Positions 298 to 10,371 of a stretch of 64,000 nt of DNA are shown here, piece after piece. Numbering within the stretch: position 1 is the first letter of the stretch; each line of letters begins with the position of its first letter. The position numbers and the translations under genes were made by a program. Below the pieces are notes generated by a model that was not told where the DNA came from, made no database searches, and saw nothing but the letters and a program-made list of their open reading frames with translations. Origin of the DNA: a virus (taxonomy: Duplodnaviria > Heunggongvirae > Uroviricota > Caudoviricetes). The stretch lies in IMG/VR virus record IMGVR_UViG_2675903433_000022. One strand, 5' to 3'.

Positions 298-747
298 ATG
301 AGTAACAAAATCGAAAACCCCGTAGTTCTCATTCACAAGCGTGAGAACCACGACTCCTATGCCGTGACGATCACCAATGGGAGTCACGATTTTTACGATG
401 GTCTGCTAATGGCCTCAGTGTCGCCTGATGAGGCAGACAACTCTTTTGCCGTCTTCGCTATGGTTGGTTACTACATGGCTGCCGAAATTGAGAAGTTGCG
501 GGCGCAGAGAGAAGCATTAGCGGCGGAGAATGCAGCCCTGAAAGAATCTGAGCGAGCATTCGATGCGATGTGTGCCGAGGAACACGGAGATAATTGGGTT
601 AGCGAATTAACGGAAGCCCCTGCTACCGACGCTTTTCTGGCTGAGATACGAGCGCAGGGCGTGGAGATGTTTGCTGAGTGCGCATACACACTTGAACATC
701 ATGATCACGCAGTAGCCTTCGCCGCTGAGCTTCGCAAAGGAGCATGA
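298..747 (+). CDS. Hypothetical phage early protein
   Basis: 149 aa ORF, first gene of a tightly packed plus-strand operon; stop is 1 nt from next start. Confidence 0.6.
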   Translation: MSNKIENPVVLIHKRENHDSYAVTITNGSHDFYDGLLMASVSPDEADNSFAVFAMVGYYMAAEIEKLRAQREALAAENAALKESERAFDAMCAEEHGDNWVSELTEAPATDAFLAEIRAQGVEMFAECAYTLEHHDHAVAFAAELRKGA

Positions 748-748
748 T

Positions 749-994
749 ATGGCAACCAATAAAACGTTAGAAGCCGCCAACTTATGGCAGATTGAGCGTG
801 CAAGGTTTGAAGCGGAACACCCGGATTTGCGAATAATGCTTAACCGTGTCGAAGAGCAACTGCATTGCAATATTATGGCGTCGGTCATCATGCTTAATGA
901 CCTTTCTTATACCGTTCGAGAAGTTAAGCGCAAAGCTAACGCGAAAGAAGTAAATAGCTCACCGAATACAAATGGTGATGTGAAATGCAGATAG
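749..994 (+). CDS. Hypothetical protein
   Basis: 81 aa ORF; RBS-like aaaggagca upstream; coupled to preceding gene. Confidence 0.5.
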   Translation: MATNKTLEAANLWQIERARFEAEHPDLRIMLNRVEEQLHCNIMASVIMLNDLSYTVREVKRKANAKEVNSSPNTNGDVKCR

Positions 995-1154
995 TGTTCT
1001 TCGGCTTGCTTCCACACCCAATTCGCCTTTGGGCGTCAACATCACTCATAAAGCCGCATGTCTTTTCTGATGGAACCGGTATTCCTGCATCAAAGCGTCG
1101 TACCGGTATCGCGGCGGCACGGCGTGCAGCAAGGAAACGCAGGAGAGCAAAACG

Positions 1155-1325
1155 ATGAAAAACCGTAAAGCAAAGATTCTATTAGTTCGTAGAAACGACC
1201 CTCGAGTCTTGCAATGGACAAGAATCAGCAACAGGAGAACGGGATTGTTCACTCATGTTGGTCAGATTATGCACTCATTTCGGGATGGTGGATTTTGGTT
1301 AAATCATGATCGTGTCGAAAATTAA
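1155..1325 (+). CDS. Small basic hypothetical protein (56 aa)
   Basis: ATG preceded by gcaggagagcaaaacg (AGGAG, 9 nt spacing); below the ORF-track size cut-off; translated by hand. Confidence 0.3.
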   Translation: MKNRKAKILLVRRNDPRVLQWTRISNRRTGLFTHVGQIMHSFRDGGFWLNHDRVEN

Positions 1326-1336
1326 GGTGAAAGAAG

Positions 1337-1660
1337 ATGACCACATCGCATTCTGCTATTACCCAGGAAAAAGCCTTCCACATACTCGAACGATTAGAGG
1401 CGCTTGCTACGGAGGAAGATATATCACTGGAGAAACTGGTTGAGTTCAGCCGTGTGATATTGCGTCGCAAGAACGATATGGAGCGACTGACATCTGGCGC
1501 TCAATCCTTATCAGTCAGGCGAACACTTTGTTGCAGCTTCTGCAACAAATCCCAGTACGCCGTCAAAAAGTTAATTGCTGGGGACGCCGTTTTCATCTGC
1601 GACGAGTGTGTGGATGTGTGCAACAGAATTATCCGGGGAGAGAAAGAGGGATCAGCATGA
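1337..1660 (+). CDS. Protein with C-terminal ClpX-type C4 zinc-finger domain
   Basis: C-terminus [35 protein letters not shown] closely resembles the ClpX N-terminal zinc-binding domain; RBS aaggtgaaagaag before ATG. Confidence 0.6.
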
Positions 1661-2178
1661 AATTTTCCAAATTTTCTGAGTTGGTGAATCGTATTTTGTC
1701 CAACAACCACAGCCATCGTCGCGATATGGATGTAACGATCGTTGTTCATTCGCCTGGTCGCATCGGTTCAACACCATCAGTTGAGGTTCAGTCAATTCAG
1801 GCGGGTTTTGATTGGGATGCCGGGAAAGTGATGATTTTTCCAGCACAGCCACTGACCACGCTAACACCGGAGCAGGTTGCTGATATTACTGAAAGTGTGC
1901 ACAAAGGCCAGTCATGGCACGCGTATCAGGAATACAAGAAGCATAAAGAGCAGTTGGAAAAATTGTCGATGGAGTTGGAAGCCGCTAAACAGAGGGAAAA
2001 AGATCTGTTTATGGAAAATGTTCGACTTAAGTCAGGTATAGCCGGTCTGATACACCTCGGTATTCGATATGCGGATGTTGAGGTCATGAAAATTGCTGGA
2101 GATGCCCAGCTTTCTACTCCATGCACTGACAGCATCATAAACAGCATTGCAACAGGCATTCGCATTACAGCAGAGTGA
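1657..2178 (+). CDS. Hypothetical protein
   Basis: ATG at 1657 overlaps previous stop (ATGA); RBS gagaaagaggga; the track ORF from 1528 is an in-frame upstream extension overlapping the previous gene. Confidence 0.55.
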
Positions 2179-2381
2179 GTGATATGGATAAAAATACCCC
2201 TGCTTACTGGAGTTTATCACTTGATACCGAATGCCCAAAATGCGGTCACAATTTCGATCTGCTTTGTGATGCTGATTTTTGGGAGTTTTCTGGAGCGAAA
2301 CAGGCGTGTGAAGAAATAGAAGGTTACGAAACATGCTGTCCAGAATGCAACCATGAATTTAAAACAGATTTTGTGTATTGA
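2175..2381 (+). CDS. Small zinc-ribbon protein
   Basis: Two CxxC pairs (CPKCGH...CCPECNH); GTG at 2175 overlaps upstream stop, alternative ATG at 2184. Confidence 0.5.
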   Translation: MSDMDKNTPAYWSLSLDTECPKCGHNFDLLCDADFWEFSGAKQACEEIEGYETCCPECNHEFKTDFVY

Positions 2382-2391
2382 AGCATAGCAA

Positions 2392-2913
2392 ATGACCACC
2401 TTTACCAAAGAACAACTAATTGATCATATTAATGATCGCAAAGATGTCCGTCAGAGAATGTTGGATACCGCAACGATTTCTTCTGGATTCCGAGAATATC
2501 TTGAAAGAGAGCTTGCCACCGATCAGATTGCCCTAGCGTCGCTGGAAGCTGAACCTGTTCTGTATCAGTCCTGCACTCGCCCCACTTGGAATAGCGGTGT
2601 TCCGTGGACGGAATGGAAAGAACGTAGTCGTGAGGGCTACGAAAACGATTTGCGCTTTACAGACACGCCTGACCATGCCGGTTGGATAAACAAATGTCGA
2701 AAACTATATACCACTCCGCCAGCGTCACTGCTACCTGACGGACTGGTTAAAGCCGTGCGCTTCTATGAACAGGTTAAGCGTGAAAATCCGCCAGTCGAAA
2801 CCGGAGCATGGAAAGACGCGGTTGACTGGGTGCTTAAAGAGGCTTTCCAGGCTGTATCAGTGTTGGAAAGCAGTAGAGAACACGAAGTTATTAGCCAGCA
2901 GGAGAAGGCATGA
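2392..2913 (+). CDS. Hypothetical protein, N-terminal paralogue of the 3108-3812 product
   Basis: 173 aa; starts MTTFTKEQLI, same as the ORF at 3108. Confidence 0.6.
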   Translation: MTTFTKEQLIDHINDRKDVRQRMLDTATISSGFREYLERELATDQIALASLEAEPVLYQSCTRPTWNSGVPWTEWKERSREGYENDLRFTDTPDHAGWINKCRKLYTTPPASLLPDGLVKAVRFYEQVKRENPPVETGAWKDAVDWVLKEAFQAVSVLESSREHEVISQQEKA

Positions 2914-3098
2914 GACAACTTTACACCATTGTTATCGCATTTGTTTTTGGTTTTGGCGGCATTTGCGTCGGTGAGAGTGCTGGCTATAACCGTGGATTAA
3001 GTGAAGGAGTTGCTATCAGCAAGGGGGATAAGTGGGATTGTGCTTACTCATACGTGACTGGATTCCTTATGTGTGATCGAACCCCAAAATATAAGTAG
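2910..3098 (+). CDS. Small membrane protein
   Basis: 62 aa, hydrophobic N-terminal segment IVIAFVFGFGGICVG; ATGA overlap with upstream stop. Confidence 0.45.
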   Translation: MRQLYTIVIAFVFGFGGICVGESAGYNRGLSEGVAISKGDKWDCAYSYVTGFLMCDRTPKYK

Positions 3099-3107
3099 AG
3101 GCTATCA

Positions 3108-3812
3108 ATGACCACCTTTACCAAAGAACAGTTAATCTCCCATGCACGCGAAAGCGTTAGTTATCTGGAAAACTTGAAAGGACGTGTTAGCAAAGAAGGT
3201 GCGGACTGCAAAGTTGTTATTGAGATGGTTGCACGAGATCTAAAACTGGCTCGAATTGCACTGACCTCACTTGAGACAAAACCAATAGGTGCATTCCACA
3301 TTGCAGAACAGCAAGTTGACGGTACAAGTGACTACATCAAGGATGGAGAGTGGCCTATTGATAATGGGACAATTGAAGTATACGCCGCCCCTCCAGTGCC
3401 AGTAGTACCGGAAGAAAAACCAATGCCTAATCCTCTTAGCATGTACGCGGTTGATGCTGTTGCCGCTATTGCAGAGGTGAGAGGCTGGAACGCCTGTCGT
3501 GCCGCTATGCTTCAGAGTCAAGATAATTGCATTAAGGATGGTTGGATAAGCTGTAGTGAGCGAATGCCTGTAATCGGCGAGCTAAATTGGAGAACTGGTT
3601 TTCCTTTGCTGATTACGTGTGAGATCGGCGTTATACCAGCTTATTACGGCTTTGTGAGCGTTAATGGGGATAAGCATTATGGTTTTATGGAAAGTTTTAA
3701 ATACGGAGACGATCGCGGCGGCCATCCTAAAACTAATGAATATGGTCTGATTAGCAATGTCACACACTGGATGCCGCTACCAGAACCTCCGCAGGAGTCG
3801 AAGAGTGAATAA
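3108..3812 (+). CDS. Hypothetical protein (paralogous N-terminus)
   Basis: 234 aa; MTTFTKEQLI start shared with the 2392 product. Confidence 0.6.
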   Translation: MTTFTKEQLISHARESVSYLENLKGRVSKEGADCKVVIEMVARDLKLARIALTSLETKPIGAFHIAEQQVDGTSDYIKDGEWPIDNGTIEVYAAPPVPVVPEEKPMPNPLSMYAVDAVAAIAEVRGWNACRAAMLQSQDNCIKDGWISCSERMPVIGELNWRTGFPLLITCEIGVIPAYYGFVSVNGDKHYGFMESFKYGDDRGGHPKTNEYGLISNVTHWMPLPEPPQESKSE

Positions 3813-4026
3813 AGCAGAGTTATTTCAGAAAATATCGGCTCTCGCGACTGAATGCCACGCTATAGCATCTGAGCTTGATGTTGGCGATGAACGAACCGAG
3901 ATGTTCGAAATATACAGTGTGCTGCGCAATCTCTGTCGGCGTGGCTACGCCACTCAAGTAGGGCGAATGACTAACCCACTACTCTCATCCTGTGATGAGG
4001 ATGACTCGGATGAGGATGACGAATGA
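3805..4026 (+). CDS. Small protein with acidic C-terminal tail
   Basis: GTG at 3805 preceded by AGGAG at 3793-3797; C-terminus DEDDSDEDDE; track ORF from 3757 overlaps upstream gene. Confidence 0.4.
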   Translation: MNKAELFQKISALATECHAIASELDVGDERTEMFEIYSVLRNLCRRGYATQVGRMTNPLLSSCDEDDSDEDDE

Positions 4027-4877
4027 TGCATAAATCAGTAGCCGGTGAGTTTCAGAAGGAAGTCGATAATACTACCGTTCTATTGGACGATATTTTAAGC
4101 ATTCTCGCGCTGCTTGAGGCTGGCGATTGGTCAGAACATTGCACTAAAACAGAGCTAGGCGGTCGGCTTGAAAGAGAGATTACACGACTTATTGGTGATG
4201 CGCAGGAAGCTACAGTCACTAGTTATGAGTTAATCGCTGAAGCCTGGCGTTTGATGGATGGACAAGATCCTAAAACCAGCGATTGGCATAGCAAGGCTTC
4301 GAAGTATTTAAATTCCAATAGGGTAGAAAAAGTTGATGATGTGAAACCGAAGCCAGTAGATCACGGTTTCCGCGATAACTGCGAATGCTCTAGTTGCCAG
4401 ACCACGGCCCGTATTTGTTCCGAATTGACAGATAAGTCCAGCCTAATCTACGAAGTTAATGTAGGCGGTAATACATGGGTCGAATGCACAAGAGCTGCAT
4501 ACGTAAGAGCAAAAGACAAGGGTGAATTAACCAGAGTTGTTACCCATCACCCAAATAATGAGCTTAAAGATCACCAGATTCGAGAACTAGTGAACGAGTT
4601 GCGGGATATTGCGGTTACGTATCACGGAACGCAGCAATTGCGGGAGAAAATTGCCAGAGCAGTGAACAACTCGCTCAAAGGTGGACAATCCCAACCGAAA
4701 CGTATACGAATTACACATATAGGTGAAAACGGAACAGAAATCCCCCAATTTTCTGTTGGGGACATCTTTGATGTACATGGAGAAGAGTTTGGTGAGCCTC
4801 ACATCACTATGCCTAGTGGCCATGTTTACTGGCTAAGAGCTATGGAGAAATATGGTGATAAATGGGAAGTGTTATGA
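4023..4877 (+). CDS. Hypothetical protein
   Basis: 284 aa; ATGA-coupled start. Confidence 0.6.
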   Translation: MMHKSVAGEFQKEVDNTTVLLDDILSILALLEAGDWSEHCTKTELGGRLEREITRLIGDAQEATVTSYELIAEAWRLMDGQDPKTSDWHSKASKYLNSNRVEKVDDVKPKPVDHGFRDNCECSSCQTTARICSELTDKSSLIYEVNVGGNTWVECTRAAYVRAKDKGELTRVVTHHPNNELKDHQIRELVNELRDIAVTYHGTQQLREKIARAVNNSLKGGQSQPKRIRITHIGENGTEIPQFSVGDIFDVHGEEFGEPHITMPSGHVYWLRAMEKYGDKWEVL

Positions 4878-5415
4878 GGGATGCGAAGTTATGACCAAAT
4901 TTGGAAAGCTGGAAGCTCATTTGCTGACTCGTAACTACCGCCATGATATACACCCATATAGACAGTGGATTGATGAAAGCGAAGGAGTTGTTACATTCCC
5001 TCTATACAGGTTTGATGGGATGTTGGCCGGGTATCAGACATACAGACCAGGCGCTCCTAAGCAGCATAGCAATCCGAAGATGGCCCGGTATTTCACACGA
5101 GCGCACGGCAGACAGCTACTATGGGGTACCTATCTTCCTTTAAAAGATGGACCGATATGGATAACTGAGTCGATTTTTAAAAGTGCAGCAGTGCACAACG
5201 CGGGCGGAAATTCGTGGGCGCTGTTAGGCTCGACTTTCTCAGCAGGATTACGTCGTCAACTGGCAATGCTGCCGTATGACTTTCGTGTAATAGGTGACAA
5301 TGATGCGGCTGGCGAATCACTTGTGAAGTCTTTCGGAAAAGGTTTTGTGGCACCGGATCTTGACGAGCTACAACCACATGAAGTGTCTAATTTGATTTTT
5401 AGCCATAGCCAATAA
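4852..5415 (+). CDS. Hypothetical protein
   Basis: Track ORF; alternative ATG at 4891 with GAGGGA RBS. Confidence 0.55.
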   Translation: MVINGKCYEGCEVMTKFGKLEAHLLTRNYRHDIHPYRQWIDESEGVVTFPLYRFDGMLAGYQTYRPGAPKQHSNPKMARYFTRAHGRQLLWGTYLPLKDGPIWITESIFKSAAVHNAGGNSWALLGSTFSAGLRRQLAMLPYDFRVIGDNDAAGESLVKSFGKGFVAPDLDELQPHEVSNLIFSHSQ

Positions 5416-5431
5416 GTATCACTTCTCCATT

Positions 5432-5452
5432 AAGGCCACAACTAGTGGCCTT
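5432..5452 (+). terminator. Stem-loop aaggccacaactagtggcctt at end of early operon
   Basis: Perfect inverted repeat immediately followed by the AAACAAtTTGTTT palindrome. Confidence 0.5.
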
Positions 5453-5465
5453 AAACAATTTGTTT
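5453..5465. promoter_or_regulatory. 13-bp palindrome AAACAAtTTGTTT (recurrent early-region motif)
   Basis: One of at least 11 intergenic copies read in the sequence. Confidence 0.45.
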
Positions 5466-5538: not shown

Positions 5539-5895
5539 TTATGAGCGTAAATTATTAGCGGATTTTAAGCCATATTCACCGTTATAGTAATTACTCGCGT
5601 TCCATTCATTGGGAAGCTCTTGTCTGTCCAATGTATAGTGGCGCACGATGTAACGACCTGCATCTTCTTCGAGGTACAGGCGGACATAGCCAATGTGAAT
5701 TACCGGTATGGGCGGCGTTCGTATTGCATAGATGTCGCGGAGATATACCGGTAGCTCGACAAATGCATCAGGTGCATCTGTGATGCTCGTTTTTTCACAG
5801 TATTCATATAACGCATCGTTGATATCGTTAAGGGATTCATGATCGTATATTTCCAGGTAATTACCCCGATCGCGATGGTACTCGATTTTAGCCAT
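5539..5895 (-). CDS. Hypothetical protein
   Basis: 118 aa, start adjacent to upstream stop (TGAATG on minus strand). Confidence 0.55.
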   Translation of the reverse strand: MAKIEYHRDRGNYLEIYDHESLNDINDALYEYCEKTSITDAPDAFVELPVYLRDIYAIRTPPIPVIHIGYVRLYLEEDAGRYIVRHYTLDRQELPNEWNASNYYNGEYGLKSANNLRS

Positions 5896-6480
5896 TCAAA
5901 ATCCCCTATTATCGTTTTGCATTTCTCTAATCCGGTCCAGAACAACTTCATGTTGGGCTTGGATAGCGGCTTTTTCGTTTTCAAGCCGGGCAATAGACTT
6001 CTCTAATTCTTTGCTGTACCAGGCAAGTTGGGTAAGGTTCATCCGGTTGTGATCGAGAGTTGGCGACACCTCGACGTGATCCCCTTCTTCCTGCCTTAAT
6101 GAGAAGAGATTCATCTCATCCCTTGAGGAAAATTCAGCAACAATTTCTTGTTGATGATCCGGTCGCTGCGGCATCCTTGCCAGTATAAATGGCGGTTCTA
6201 TTGAAAACATGAATGACGGTTTAGACCGTGTTTTGACCCATCTAGCTTGCTGTCTTTCGGCAAGTTCACAGGCTTCATCATAGTTATCTACAAAACCAAG
6301 CACGGATGGACGGTCCCACGCGCCACCATTCAGACAATAAACAACAATTTTCCCGTCAGGTTCTGTAACTCCATAGGGATGGTCCCACCAGGCGTCCAGC
6401 TGGGCTTTGGAGCGTTTCTCGTTAGGAGTGCAGTCAAAATTTTTGGGCAATGCAGGATCGAGAGGAATGCGGGCAGGCAT
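5896..6480 (-). CDS. Hypothetical protein
   Basis: 194 aa; RBS aaggaa 6 nt before ATG on minus strand. Confidence 0.55.
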   Translation of the reverse strand: MPARIPLDPALPKNFDCTPNEKRSKAQLDAWWDHPYGVTEPDGKIVVYCLNGGAWDRPSVLGFVDNYDEACELAERQQARWVKTRSKPSFMFSIEPPFILARMPQRPDHQQEIVAEFSSRDEMNLFSLRQEEGDHVEVSPTLDHNRMNLTQLAWYSKELEKSIARLENEKAAIQAQHEVVLDRIREMQNDNRGF

Positions 6481-6652: not shown

Positions 6653-7042
6653 ATGGGCTTCCCTTCTCCTGCGGCGGATTATGCTGAGAGCCGTATTTCT
6701 CTTGATCAGCAGATAATTAGACATCCTTCAGCGACCTACTTCATGAGGGCAGCTGATAGCCATCATCGTGAGGGAATATTACAGGGTGCATTGCTGGTGG
6801 TCGATTCCTCACTTACCCCGGTTGATGGTTCTCTGCTTGTATGCGCTCTGGATGGGGAATATCGCGTAAAAAGATACCGGAAGTATCCACGTCAGCATCT
6901 GGAGGATTTAAGAACCGGTAAGAAGGAAGCATTGCCAAAGGATGACGATGGATGCACGGGCAGCAATGCCGTGTTTGGTGTGATCACTCACATTATCAAC
7001 GACGCAAGAAGTGGCGAGTTTGATGATTGTCCCGTGATGTAG
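6653..7042 (+). CDS. UmuD'-like S24 peptidase-family protein, lacking the N-terminal arm
   Basis: Begins MGFPSPAADY, matching UmuD just after its self-cleavage site as remembered; conserved HPSATYF and VK motifs; RBS GAGGTGA; no umuC downstream. Confidence 0.7.
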   Translation: MGFPSPAADYAESRISLDQQIIRHPSATYFMRAADSHHREGILQGALLVVDSSLTPVDGSLLVCALDGEYRVKRYRKYPRQHLEDLRTGKKEALPKDDDGCTGSNAVFGVITHIINDARSGEFDDCPVM

Positions 7043-7079: not shown

Positions 7080-8180
7080 TCACACTGCGCGGAATGCGAT
7101 TTCGCCAGGTATTACTTCACCTTGCCAATACATTTGGGCAGCAACGCGATCTGCGAGGTCACGATAAATAGCCGTAAATTCGCTATCTGGACGACTAATA
7201 ACGGTTGGTGTTCCGTTATCCAGATCTTCACGAAGAGAGATATGAAGTGGCATTTGGCCTAACAACTGCGTGTTGTATTTCTCGGCCAGTTTCTGTGCGC
7301 CACCGGTGCCAAAAATTGGCTCGTGATGACCGCAGTTACTGCAAATATGCATACTCATGTTCTCGACAATACCGAGCACCGGAACCTCGACTTTCTCGAA
7401 CATCACAATGCCTTTTTTCGCATCGATCAACGCGATGTCCTGCGGCGTAGTTACCACAACCGCACCAGTTACAGGAATGTTCTGCGCCAGCGTCAATTGA
7501 ATATCACCAGTGCCCGGCGGCATATCGAGAACGAGATAGTCCAGATCAGGCCATAGAGTTTCCTGCAACATCTGCATTAACGCCTTGCTCGCCATCGGAC
7601 CACGCCACACCATCGCATTGTCGTCAGTTACCAGATAACCAATTGAATTGGTTGCCAGTCCATGAGACATAATCGGTGCCATGTGAGTACCGTCCGGTGA
7701 GGTTGGACGTTGGTTTTCCGCGCCAAGCATGGTTGGAATTGATGGCCCGTAGATATCGGCATCCAAAATACCAACTTTCGCACCTTCAGCAGCCAACGCC
7801 AGTGCCAGGTTTACCGCCGTGGAGGATTTACCAACGCCGCCCTTGCCTGAGCTGACGGCGATAATGTTCTTAACGCCATTAATGCCTGGTTGGTTTTTGA
7901 CGCGCTTAAGCGTGGCAATGTTGTACGACAGCTTCCAGTCGATAGCCTTTGCGCCAGTGATACGGAGCAGATCACCACTACATTGCTCTTTCAGGTCTTC
8001 AAAAGGCTTATTCCACACGAAAGGCATGATTAGTTCGACATGCAGTGTGTCATCCATCAACGCAACATGGTGTAACGCTTTAAGCGTAGTCAGGTTGTGT
8101 TTCAGGGTTGGGTGCTGAAAATTAGCCAGCGTACCGGCTACCATTGCTCTCAGGGCATCCGGCGATTTGGACTCGCTCAT
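7080..8180 (-). CDS. apbC: Fe-S cluster carrier ATPase ApbC/Mrp
   Basis: 366 aa; SSGKGGVGKSSTAVNLALALA Walker A, CSNCGHHEPIFG motif; ortholog-level similarity to enterobacterial Mrp; divergent from metG as in enterobacterial chromosomes. Confidence 0.9.
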   Translation of the reverse strand: MSESKSPDALRAMVAGTLANFQHPTLKHNLTTLKALHHVALMDDTLHVELIMPFVWNKPFEDLKEQCSGDLLRITGAKAIDWKLSYNIATLKRVKNQPGINGVKNIIAVSSGKGGVGKSSTAVNLALALAAEGAKVGILDADIYGPSIPTMLGAENQRPTSPDGTHMAPIMSHGLATNSIGYLVTDDNAMVWRGPMASKALMQMLQETLWPDLDYLVLDMPPGTGDIQLTLAQNIPVTGAVVVTTPQDIALIDAKKGIVMFEKVEVPVLGIVENMSMHICSNCGHHEPIFGTGGAQKLAEKYNTQLLGQMPLHISLREDLDNGTPTVISRPDSEFTAIYRDLADRVAAQMYWQGEVIPGEIAFRAV

Positions 8181-8337
8181 CCCGTCTCCTTTATTTTAAT
8201 TTGCGCAATTGTCGCCTTGTAGTGTACTCCAGCTACGGCATTTAATCATTTATGAGAAATGCTGTTATCACATGGCAGACATAAGGCCATTTTGTTACTA
8301 TCAAGCCCCTTTTCACTACAAAGAAGTAATGCCTACT

Positions 8338-10371
8338 ATGACCCAAGTCGCGAAGAAAATTCTGGTGACGTGCGCGCTGCCGTACGCTAACGGCTCAATC
8401 CACCTCGGCCATATGCTGGAGCACATCCAGGCTGATGTCTGGGTTCGTTACCAGCGAATGCGCGGCCACGAGGTTAATTTCATCTGTGCCGACGATGCCC
8501 ACGGTACGCCGATCATGCTGAAAGCACAGCAGCTTGGTATCACACCGGAGCAGATGATTGGCGAAATGAGTCAGGAACACCAGACTGATTTCGCAGGCTT
8601 TAACATCAGCTATGACAACTATCACTCGACGCACAGCGAAGAGAACCGTCAGTTGTCTGAGCTTATCTATACTCGCCTGAAAGAGAACGGTTTTATTAAA
8701 AATCGTACCATCTCTCAGCTGTACGACCCGGAAAAAGGCATGTTCCTGCCGGACCGTTTTGTAAAAGGCACCTGCCCTAAATGTAAAGCGCCAGATCAAT
8801 ACGGCGATAACTGTGAAGTCTGCGGCGCGACTTACAGCCCGACTGAACTGATCGAGCCGAAATCGGTAGTTTCTGGTGCTACGCCGGTAATGCGTGATTC
8901 CGAACACTTCTTCTTTGATCTGCCTTCTTTCAGCGAAATGTTGCAGGCATGGACCCGCAGCGGTGCGTTGCAGGAGCAGGTGGCAAACAAAATGCAGGAG
9001 TGGTTTGAATCTGGCCTGCAACAGTGGGATATCTCCCGTGACGCACCTTACTTCGGTTTTGAAATTCCGAACGCGCCGGGCAAATATTTCTACGTCTGGC
9101 TGGACGCGCCGATTGGCTACATGGGTTCCTTCAAGAATCTGTGCGACAAGCGCGGTGATACCACCAGCTTCGATGAATACTGGAAGAAAGACTCCACCGC
9201 CGAGCTGTACCACTTCATCGGTAAAGATATTGTTTACTTCCACAGCCTGTTCTGGCCTGCCATGCTGGAAGGCAGCAACTTCCGCAAGCCGACCAACCTG
9301 TTTGTTCATGGCTATGTGACGGTGAACGGCGCAAAGATGTCCAAGTCTCGCGGCACCTTTATTAAAGCCAGCACCTGGCTGAATCATTTTGACGCTGACA
9401 GCCTGCGTTACTACTACACTGCGAAACTCTCTTCGCGCATTGATGATATCGATCTCAACCTGGAGGATTTCGTTCAGCGCGTGAATGCCGATATCGTGAA
9501 CAAAGTGGTTAACCTGGCCTCCCGTAATGCAGGCTTTATCAACAAGCGTTTTGACGGCGTGCTGGCAAGCGAACTGGCTGACCCGCAACTGTACAAAACC
9601 TTTACTGATGCCGCTGAAGTGATTGGTGAAGCATGGGAAAGCCGCGAATTTGGTAAAGCGATTCGTGAAATCATGGCGCTGGCTGATCTGGCTAACCGCT
9701 ATGTCGATGAACAGGCTCCGTGGGTGGTGGCGAAGCAGGAAGGACGCGATGCCGATCTGCAGGCGATTTGCTCTATGGGCATTAACCTGTTCCGCGTGCT
9801 GATGACGTACCTGAAACCGGTACTGCCGAAACTGACTGAACGTGCAGAAGCATTCCTGAATACAGAACTGACCTGGGATGGTATCCAGCAACCGCTGCTG
9901 GGCCATAAAGTGAATCCGTTCAAGGCACTGTATAACCGTATCGATATGAAACAGGTGGAAGCACTGGTGGAAGCATCCAAAGAAGAAGTGAAAGCCACAG
10001 CTGCACCGGTAACTGGCCCACTGGCTGACGACCCGATTCAGGAAACCATCACCTTTGACGACTTCGCCAAAGTTGACCTGCGTGTGGCGCTGATTGAAAA
10101 CGCGGAGTTTGTCGAAGGTTCTGACAAACTGCTTCGCCTGACGCTGGATCTCGGTGGTGAAAAGCGTAATGTCTTCTCAGGCATCCGTTCCGCTTATCCA
10201 GATCCACAGGCACTGATTGGTCGTCACACCATTATGGTGGCTAACCTGGCTCCGCGTAAAATGCGCTTCGGTATCTCTGAAGGCATGGTGATGGCTGCTG
10301 GCCCCGGCGGGAAAGATATCTTCCTGTTAAGCCCGGATGCTGGTGCTAAACCTGGCCACCAGGTTAAGTAA
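8338..10371 (+). CDS. metG: Methionyl-tRNA synthetase
   Basis: 677 aa from [29 protein letters not shown] (HIGH motif), KMSKS present, C-terminal tRNA-binding domain; track ORF 8209 is an upstream in-frame extension. Confidence 0.95.

Follow-up and report, generated by a model that had tools for sequence, protein, structure and literature searches.

The question raised by this locus is why a phage-plasmid should carry a small gene for a protein with the host unfoldase ClpX's zinc-binding domain (ZBD, ClpX C4 type), and what such a protein might do to host proteolysis. RpoS, SOS mutagenesis (UmuD'), clean-up after trans-translation, the activation of toxin-antitoxin systems and the stability of phage replication proteins all come under ClpXP control, and all adaptor-dependent ClpXP routes converge on the ZBD. 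The window, that is, the whole stretch of 64,000 nt analyzed here, is an SSU5-like phage-plasmid, because its structural genes are 98.9% identical to those of Escherichia phage Cyrano and 82.8% to those of Salmonella phage SSU5, and because its first 12 kb match circular E. coli plasmids of about 109 kb (such as pEC881_2 and the 109-kb plasmid of O104:H4 2009EL-2050). SSU5 itself is without the ZBD gene. SSU5-like plasmids are common in clinical E. coli. Judging from sequence and predicted structure, the small gene would most likely interfere with or redirect host ClpXP degradation.

A ClpX-type zinc-binding domain behind an orphan helical hairpin

The gene is an intact ORF running from an ATG to a TGA stop at 1658-1660, the ORF upstream of it ends with a stop codon at 1323-1325, and its product of 107 aa carries the ZBD at residues 63-105 (Table 1). 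The preliminary description had likened the C-terminal 40 residues to the C4 zinc finger of ClpX, and this likeness was borne out. The residues it quoted are exactly residues 65-104, and the HMM search it had proposed, against the Pfam profile zf-C4_ClpX (PF06689), returned a significant match of 57.5 bits with respect to a gathering score of 27 (E 1.2e-15), with residues 65-100 aligned to profile positions 2-38 of 39. By sequence search of the PDB, the best solved relatives were the E. coli ClpX ZBD structures 2DS5/1OVX (E 1e-14). An AF2 model of the whole protein (mean pLDDT 80) predicts a treble clef for the ZBD, which superposes on the solved ClpX ZBDs 2DS5, 2DS6, 2DS7 and 2DS8 with an rmsd of 1.1-1.3 A (1.2 A for 2DS5) and a TM(target) of 0.75-0.82, at 71% identity over 38 columns. 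The ligand cysteines C66, C69, C88 and C91, whose possible loss in homologues had been raised beforehand, are invariant in the 27 homologues of the family as well as in 55 other ZBDs. At full length the protein matches PHROG 6797, a phage family of unknown function, with residues 1-106 on profile positions 1-106 of 107 (E 2e-57). The ZBD is a bona fide member of PF06689 and the whole protein a member of PHROG 6797; the resemblance to the ClpX ZBD is far beyond chance. The window protein is not a ClpX, however, as the AAA+ module is absent; the NCBIfam ClpX equivalogs TIGR00382 and PRK05342, which have cut-offs of 359 and 370.75, gave only 41.9 and 39.8 bits, over no more than model positions 4-48.

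The sequence fact in itself is not new, since databases already label the domain, without giving a function. Public databases hold the identical protein either as 'ClpX C4-type zinc finger protein' or as 'carboxylate--amine ligase'. We rejected the second name, given that the protein has no ligase domain, that PF06689 was the sole Pfam find and that the N-domain is without a family; the label is a propagated misannotation. It is widespread in NCBI (D6 H7U15_gp034, P88 SF19_gp19 and many E. coli and Salmonella entries), and newer PGAP records name the family 'ClpX C4-type zinc finger protein'. The 90% cluster containing the window protein also has proteins of 173-176 aa, including the 176-aa representative and one named 'EA22-like protein'; by length alone, these members would fit the product of the downstream gene (173 aa in the window, 176 aa in PhiR41_1).

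The ZBD had also been described as free-standing, and this part did not hold, as a conserved N-terminal domain of 55 aa precedes it. A profile of the N-terminal 60 residues gave 11 matches among 1.84 billion (1.84e9) representative proteins. All the complete N-domain matches carry a C-terminal ZBD, and what remains consists of family fragments, either truncated or frameshifted, and of spurious translations of repeats; P0121, P0128 and P0129 were discarded as N-domain relatives, being repeat artefacts. No N-domain relative was found by the PDB profile search or in Pfam at E <= 10, and Foldseek against the PDB and BFVD returned no structure resembling the N-terminal part. The hairpin is an orphan domain, occurring only ahead of the ZBD of the window-protein family. 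The heptad-like hydrophobic spacing in both helices suggests a possible four-helix bundle that would lock a homodimer, and the stretch L42-R-R-K45 is nearly invariant across the family. Within the SSU5/D6 clade, conservation is higher in the N-domain than in the ZBD; the hairpin therefore appears to be no passive appendage, and its conservation suggests that the protein may be more than a passive decoy.

Table 1. Positions of the ZBD gene, its parts and its surroundings in the window.
Feature	Position	Strand	Basis or remark
Accessory block, one-directional, of tightly packed small genes (Ea22/EaA/DUF551/toprim type), 5.2 kb	298..5415	+	holds the ZBD gene
Hairpins bounding the accessory block	190-210 and 5430-5454		
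Shine-Dalgarno-like AAGGTG	1324..1329	+	7 nt 5' of the ATG; sequence read directly
Whole ZBD gene: N-terminal helical hairpin, linker, ClpX-type ZBD	1337..1660	+	ORF and full-length phrog_6797 match
Two-helix hairpin, residues 10-52 (helices 10-26 and 31-52)	1364..1492	+	predicted structure, pLDDT 82-91 over residues 11-50
Flexible Ser/Gly-rich linker, residues 53-62	1493..1522	+	pLDDT <50 at residues 56-59; S53, S57 and S59 conserved
ClpX-type C4 zinc-binding domain (treble clef), residues 63-105	1523..1651	+	Pfam match at 65-100, NCBIfam, PDB, model
First zinc knuckle C66-S-F-C69 (= ClpX C14..C17); F68 = ClpX F16	1532..1543	+	family alignment
Second zinc-ligand pair C88-D-E-C91 (= ClpX C36..C39)	1598..1609	+	family alignment
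Downstream gene, 173 aa, no family	1657..2178	+	ATGA overlap (1657-1660) with the stop of the ZBD gene

Genomic setting, mobility and selection

The preliminary description placed the gene in an early operon, a term that would apply to the accessory block only by analogy with the ea region of lambda. Immediately downstream, the 173-aa gene is conserved in SSU5-like relatives only, and the family as a whole does not share it as a partner. The second gene downstream of the ZBD gene, 2184..2381 (+), encodes 65 aa with two CxxC pairs (CPKCG…CPECN), a small zinc ribbon whose match to the Rad50 zinc hook is sub-threshold only. The products of 2392..2913 and 3108..3812 (both +) have the N-terminus MTTFTKEQLI in common, and the C-terminal motif GLVKAVRFYEQVKRENPP.ETGAWKDAVDWVLKEA of 2392..2913 recurs directly downstream of the ZBD gene in P88/UTI89-type prophages (L003 6333..6671; L011 5159..5473). 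The shared start and the recurring motif reflect a shuffling of modules between accessory genes of the ea type. Between the toprim gene and a gene for an S24 peptidase lie two genes of 118 and 194 aa (5539..5895 and 5896..6480, both -), and the segment 5470..6399 does not align with pEC881_2 and looks like a local insertion or replacement. The S24 peptidase (6653..7042, +) is of the UmuD'/HumD type, with 129 aa, and shares 99% identity with its counterpart in pEC881_2. The phage-plasmid also carries homologues of apbC (iron-sulfur cluster carrier; 7080..8180, -) and metG (methionyl-tRNA synthetase; ~8209..10371, +), a trait found in all its close relatives. No tRNA genes were found in the window.

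A word-indexed search recovered some 30 full-length clusters, which without exception come from Escherichia, Shigella or Salmonella, and beyond those clusters matches cover the ZBD only. We did not retain the idea that stand-alone ZBDs are widespread in bacteria: most of the short matches are frameshifted ClpX N-termini, and they were not used as support. In the alignment of 27 family members, F68, G82, I87, V92 and C95 are invariant together with the four cysteines. Two subfamilies can be distinguished, the SSU5/D6 type, which includes the window protein, and the P88/UTI89 type, with about 44% identity between them in the N-domain and about 68% in the ZBD. By nucleotide search, a copy is present in 220 of 5426 complete E. 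coli genomes (~4%), at 106 places on plasmids and 127 on chromosomes.

The surroundings of the gene vary with the element that carries it. P2-like (P88/UTI89-type) prophages have it between gene A-ParM-StbB and the portal gene, and in D6 (P1-like) and SSU5-like elements it adjoins Ead/Ea22-family genes. Comparing upstream and downstream genes revealed no partner gene conserved across the SSU5-like, D6 and P2-like contexts; Ead/Ea22-family genes recur nearby. Since the flanking genes differ between contexts, the gene moves as a single-gene module with no dedicated phage partner, and since no neighbour is conserved across the three contexts, any partner must come from the host.

Purifying selection acts on both domains, with dN/dS of about 0.2-0.4 in divergent pairs; for the hairpin the values are 0.12-0.42 in all pairs except L005-L009 (1.14, 9 substitutions). 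The codons of the ZBD share only 58-65% identity with clpX of E. coli K-12, with saturation at synonymous sites (pS 0.79-1.0), yet in the five loci compared the amino-acid identity to the ZBD of E. coli ClpX comes to 59-76%. A nucleotide search at E 1e-10 did not match host clpX. Recent capture from host clpX was rejected on the grounds of synonymous saturation and of the missing nucleotide-level match. Synonymous saturation at 59-76% amino-acid identity implies that selection, not recent capture, maintains the ClpX-like sequence, and the protein sequence has been kept in this way for a long time.

The docking pocket and candidate functions

In ClpX, F16 and I46 make up a hydrophobic pocket, which overlaps with the lambda-O site and with the region to which TF, SspB and RssB bind (PMC7804408). 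In the phage family, F68 (ClpX F16) is invariant, and position 98 (ClpX I46) is I, V or L in 29 of 29 proteins. Other positions have moved. The window protein reads KLIAGD where ClpX has K26-L-I-A-G-P31, and across the family P31 is replaced by D/E in 26 of 29 members, K26 by L/Q in 9, A29 by T in 7 and Y/F34 by C in 6; all four positions lie in the beta-hairpin, residues 78-86, and are near-invariant in other ZBDs. P88-type proteins retain AGP. Identity of the ZBD to that of ClpX ranges from 46% to 80% across the family. The sub-lineage of P0019, P0021, P0024 and P0028 is 72-84% identical to the window protein in the N-domain and only 49-61% in the ZBD, which is 46-59% identical to ClpX, and P0022, with up to 80%, has an SSU5-type N-domain joined to a P88/ClpX-like ZBD. 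In one sub-lineage the hairpin of the ZBD (…KLIITGEGVCIC…) is strongly diverged, whereas the N-domain ahead of it has hardly changed. The two domains have discordant histories, through either inter-domain recombination or a diversifying ZBD hairpin. A diverged ZBD next to a kept N-domain suggests that specificity may have been altered and that the N-domain function may be essential.

We consider the protein most likely to be a mimic of the ClpX N-domain that would titrate ZBD-docking adaptors or substrates away from ClpXP, with a rough probability of 0.4. This is the most economical reading in view of the retained pocket, the self-sufficiency of the isolated ZBD, the inhibition by ZBD in trans and the precedents of phage protease inhibitors. 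Added in trans, the ZBD reportedly inhibits the degradation of lambda-O and MuA. The ZBD is the docking platform of RssB, and the XB peptide of SspB competes RssB/sigma-S off ClpX (PMC7226468). On its own, ClpX ZBD(1-52) is a self-sufficient module that binds XB-containing peptides at 35-82 nM (PMC12373786). Phage inhibitors of host ATP-dependent proteases are represented by T4 PinA and T7 gp4.5, which act on Lon, and by lambda RexB, which acts on ClpP (PMC10286901). The idea of a ClpXP decoy or modulator, already put forward in the preliminary description, fits with a ClpX-like sequence kept despite saturation, with the conservation of F68 and I98 and with the lack of a conserved partner gene.

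The steps of binding and inhibition that we infer would be the following. With its ClpX-type fold and docking pocket kept, the phage ZBD would vie with those of the host ClpX hexamers for adaptors such as SspB and RssB, for tethering partners such as UmuD and for N-domain-dependent substrates of the lambda-O/MuA type. As an outcome, adaptor- or N-domain-dependent ClpXP proteolysis would be slowed selectively, and direct degradation of the ssrA type would be unaffected. The hairpin might keep two chains joined in a stable ZBD dimer of high avidity, or it might provide a second specific contact. Stabilized phage or plasmid proteins, higher RpoS, or a block of protease-triggered toxin-antitoxin suicide are possible benefits for the element. 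UmuD' is a ZBD-tethered ClpXP substrate, and the S24 peptidase of the element is, speculatively, a candidate beneficiary of a ZBD decoy; no S24 peptidase neighbours the ZBD gene in the P2-like carrier loci examined.

Several observations sit less well with a decoy. The relaxed K26, A29 and P31 count against it, because these positions are essentially invariant in other ZBDs, and the conserved N-domain suggests something other than a simple decoy, which would not need one. A stoichiometric decoy would also have to be abundant. All window ORFs were scanned for SspB-XB-like LR[VIL][VIL]K motifs or C-terminal AA degrons, with one match, in a spurious antisense ORF; among the element's own proteins no XB-like motif or obvious ClpX degron was found.

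It is possible, if rather unlikely, that the protein acts on ClpX itself. ClpX ZBDs are obligate dimers, and the phage ZBD might heterodimerize with a ClpX ZBD, or the hairpin might dock on ClpX; once on the unfoldase, the hairpin would recruit a specific protein for degradation, as a phage-made adaptor, or block the N-domain or the pore. The hairpin is strictly family-specific and always fused to the ZBD, and in the SSU5/D6 clade it is the more conserved of the two domains, as expected of an effector end. The identity to the host ZBD, in the five loci and up to that of P0022, makes mixed dimers conceivable. However, ClpX ZBD dimers are said to be very stable and pre-formed within hexamers, which makes subunit exchange doubtful. 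The L42-R-R-K45 stretch bears a faint likeness to LRVVK, the XB motif of SspB, and to LKxh, the consensus for ZBD binding put forward in PMC7226468, but LRRK lies in a predicted helix, whereas XB binds extended. We regard as improbable the version in which the hairpin would be the effector and the ZBD a plug into host ClpX (by mixed dimers or docking), making the protein a virus-made adaptor that re-programs ClpXP substrate choice. A chosen host or rival-phage protein would then be sent to degradation, and the fast-evolving ZBD hairpin might reflect an arms race.

The second alternative, which we also hold to be unlikely, is that the ZBD serves as a generic treble-clef binding module with a target outside ClpXP, such as a phage or host regulator or nucleic acid, and that its ClpX likeness reflects ancestry only. 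ZBDs do exist outside ClpX: in cyanobacteria, for instance, they are found joined to sigma factors (PMC11119718), and in P0034, P0057 and P0110 a ZBD is fused to a second zinc ribbon; the drift of the ClpX-invariant K26, A29, P31 and Y/F34 in part of the family points in the same direction. Yet surface and core remain ClpX-like over saturated synonymous divergence, the F16/I46 pocket residues are retained, and the confinement of the family to elements of Escherichia, Shigella and Salmonella fits with adaptation to one host machine.

Quite improbable, in our view, is a role in prophage exclusion or defence, in which the ZBD would bind ZBD-recognized proteins of superinfecting phages or transposons (lambda-O-like initiators, MuA-like transposases) and disturb their function or turnover. 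Temperate elements are the only carriers, and in P2-like prophages the gene lies between replication gene A (with ParM/StbB) and the portal gene, an interval reported to be the variable P2 locus often holding anti-phage genes. In D6 and SSU5-like elements, however, it sits among ea-type genes of unknown role, and the gene, small and single, encodes no effector domain. No PADLOC-DB 2.0 model matched the ZBD protein or six neighbours at E <= 0.01, and assignment to a known defence system was rejected for this reason. Finally, although the surrounding block is mosaic, with truncated Ea22-like genes, the reading of the gene as a functionless leftover of a captured 5' end of clpX, or as an annotation artefact, is effectively refuted by its distribution (an intact ORF with a ribosome-binding site, conserved over three phage types and in 220/5426 complete genomes), by purifying selection on a protein with an added conserved domain, and by its divergence from clpX, with no nucleotide-level host match at E 1e-10.

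Relation to known systems and meaning

With the ClpX N-domain, the phage ZBD shares the C4 treble clef, the ligand spacing, about 70% of its residues and the F16/I46 pocket residues. Unlike ClpX, the window protein is without the AAA+ module and cannot unfold, and its ZBD is C-terminal, behind a novel helical hairpin, whereas that of ClpX is N-terminal; in addition, most members have Asp/Glu at the ClpX-invariant P31, and some are relaxed at K26 and A29.

As a ClpX N-domain mimic, the protein would resemble RexB (ClpP-dependent proteolysis), PinA and gp4.5 (Lon) in being a small accessory protein of a phage that presumably dampens a host AAA+ protease, which might favor the stability of phage proteins or counter toxin-antitoxin suicide (PMC10286901). 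It differs from them in having no sequence relationship and in that they are not described as mimics of a protease docking domain, and its own function is a proposed one. The anti-adaptors IraP, IraM and IraD block the delivery of sigma-S to ClpXP by RssB. If the phage ZBD titrates RssB, the same net effect would be expected on this one pathway; indeed, the sites on RssB that IraD and the ClpX ZBD occupy overlap (PMC7226468). The Ira proteins, in contrast, have unrelated folds, are host-encoded and are RssB-specific, whereas a ZBD mimic would be expected to affect several ZBD-dependent routes.

Other phages also carry a ZBD without the ATPase, as seen for phrog_12435 (65-aa profile), for a 65-aa 'Clp protease' of Pseudomonas phage PP9W2 and for an ORF of Caulobacter phage Cr30. 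These proteins differ from the window protein in being ZBD-only, with no N-terminal hairpin, are unrelated to it outside the ZBD and are equally uncharacterized; among the papers searched, none dealt with the ZBD-only miniproteins of phrog_12435, PP9W2 and Cr30, or with any phage or stand-alone ZBD protein like that of the window. In Cr30 (L012, NC_025422.1), the ZBD-only ORF of about 70-79 aa is at 1522..1761 (+), where the record annotates just a 41-aa hypothetical protein. ATPase-less ClpX ZBDs recur in unrelated phages and are an unstudied theme.

In conclusion, the gene is real, under selection and mobile, and encodes a well-defined ZBD of the ClpX type together with an orphan helical domain; the function that we propose for it would be a variation on phage modulation of host AAA+ proteases. 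The new part is the idea of a protease modulator that may copy the docking domain of the protease itself; if true, it would be the first natural one to work in this way, and it might offer a ready-made tool to switch off adaptor-dependent ClpXP degradation. For the prophages and phage-plasmids that carry it, a competing mobile ZBD would then be a compact and selective means of rewiring host proteolysis.
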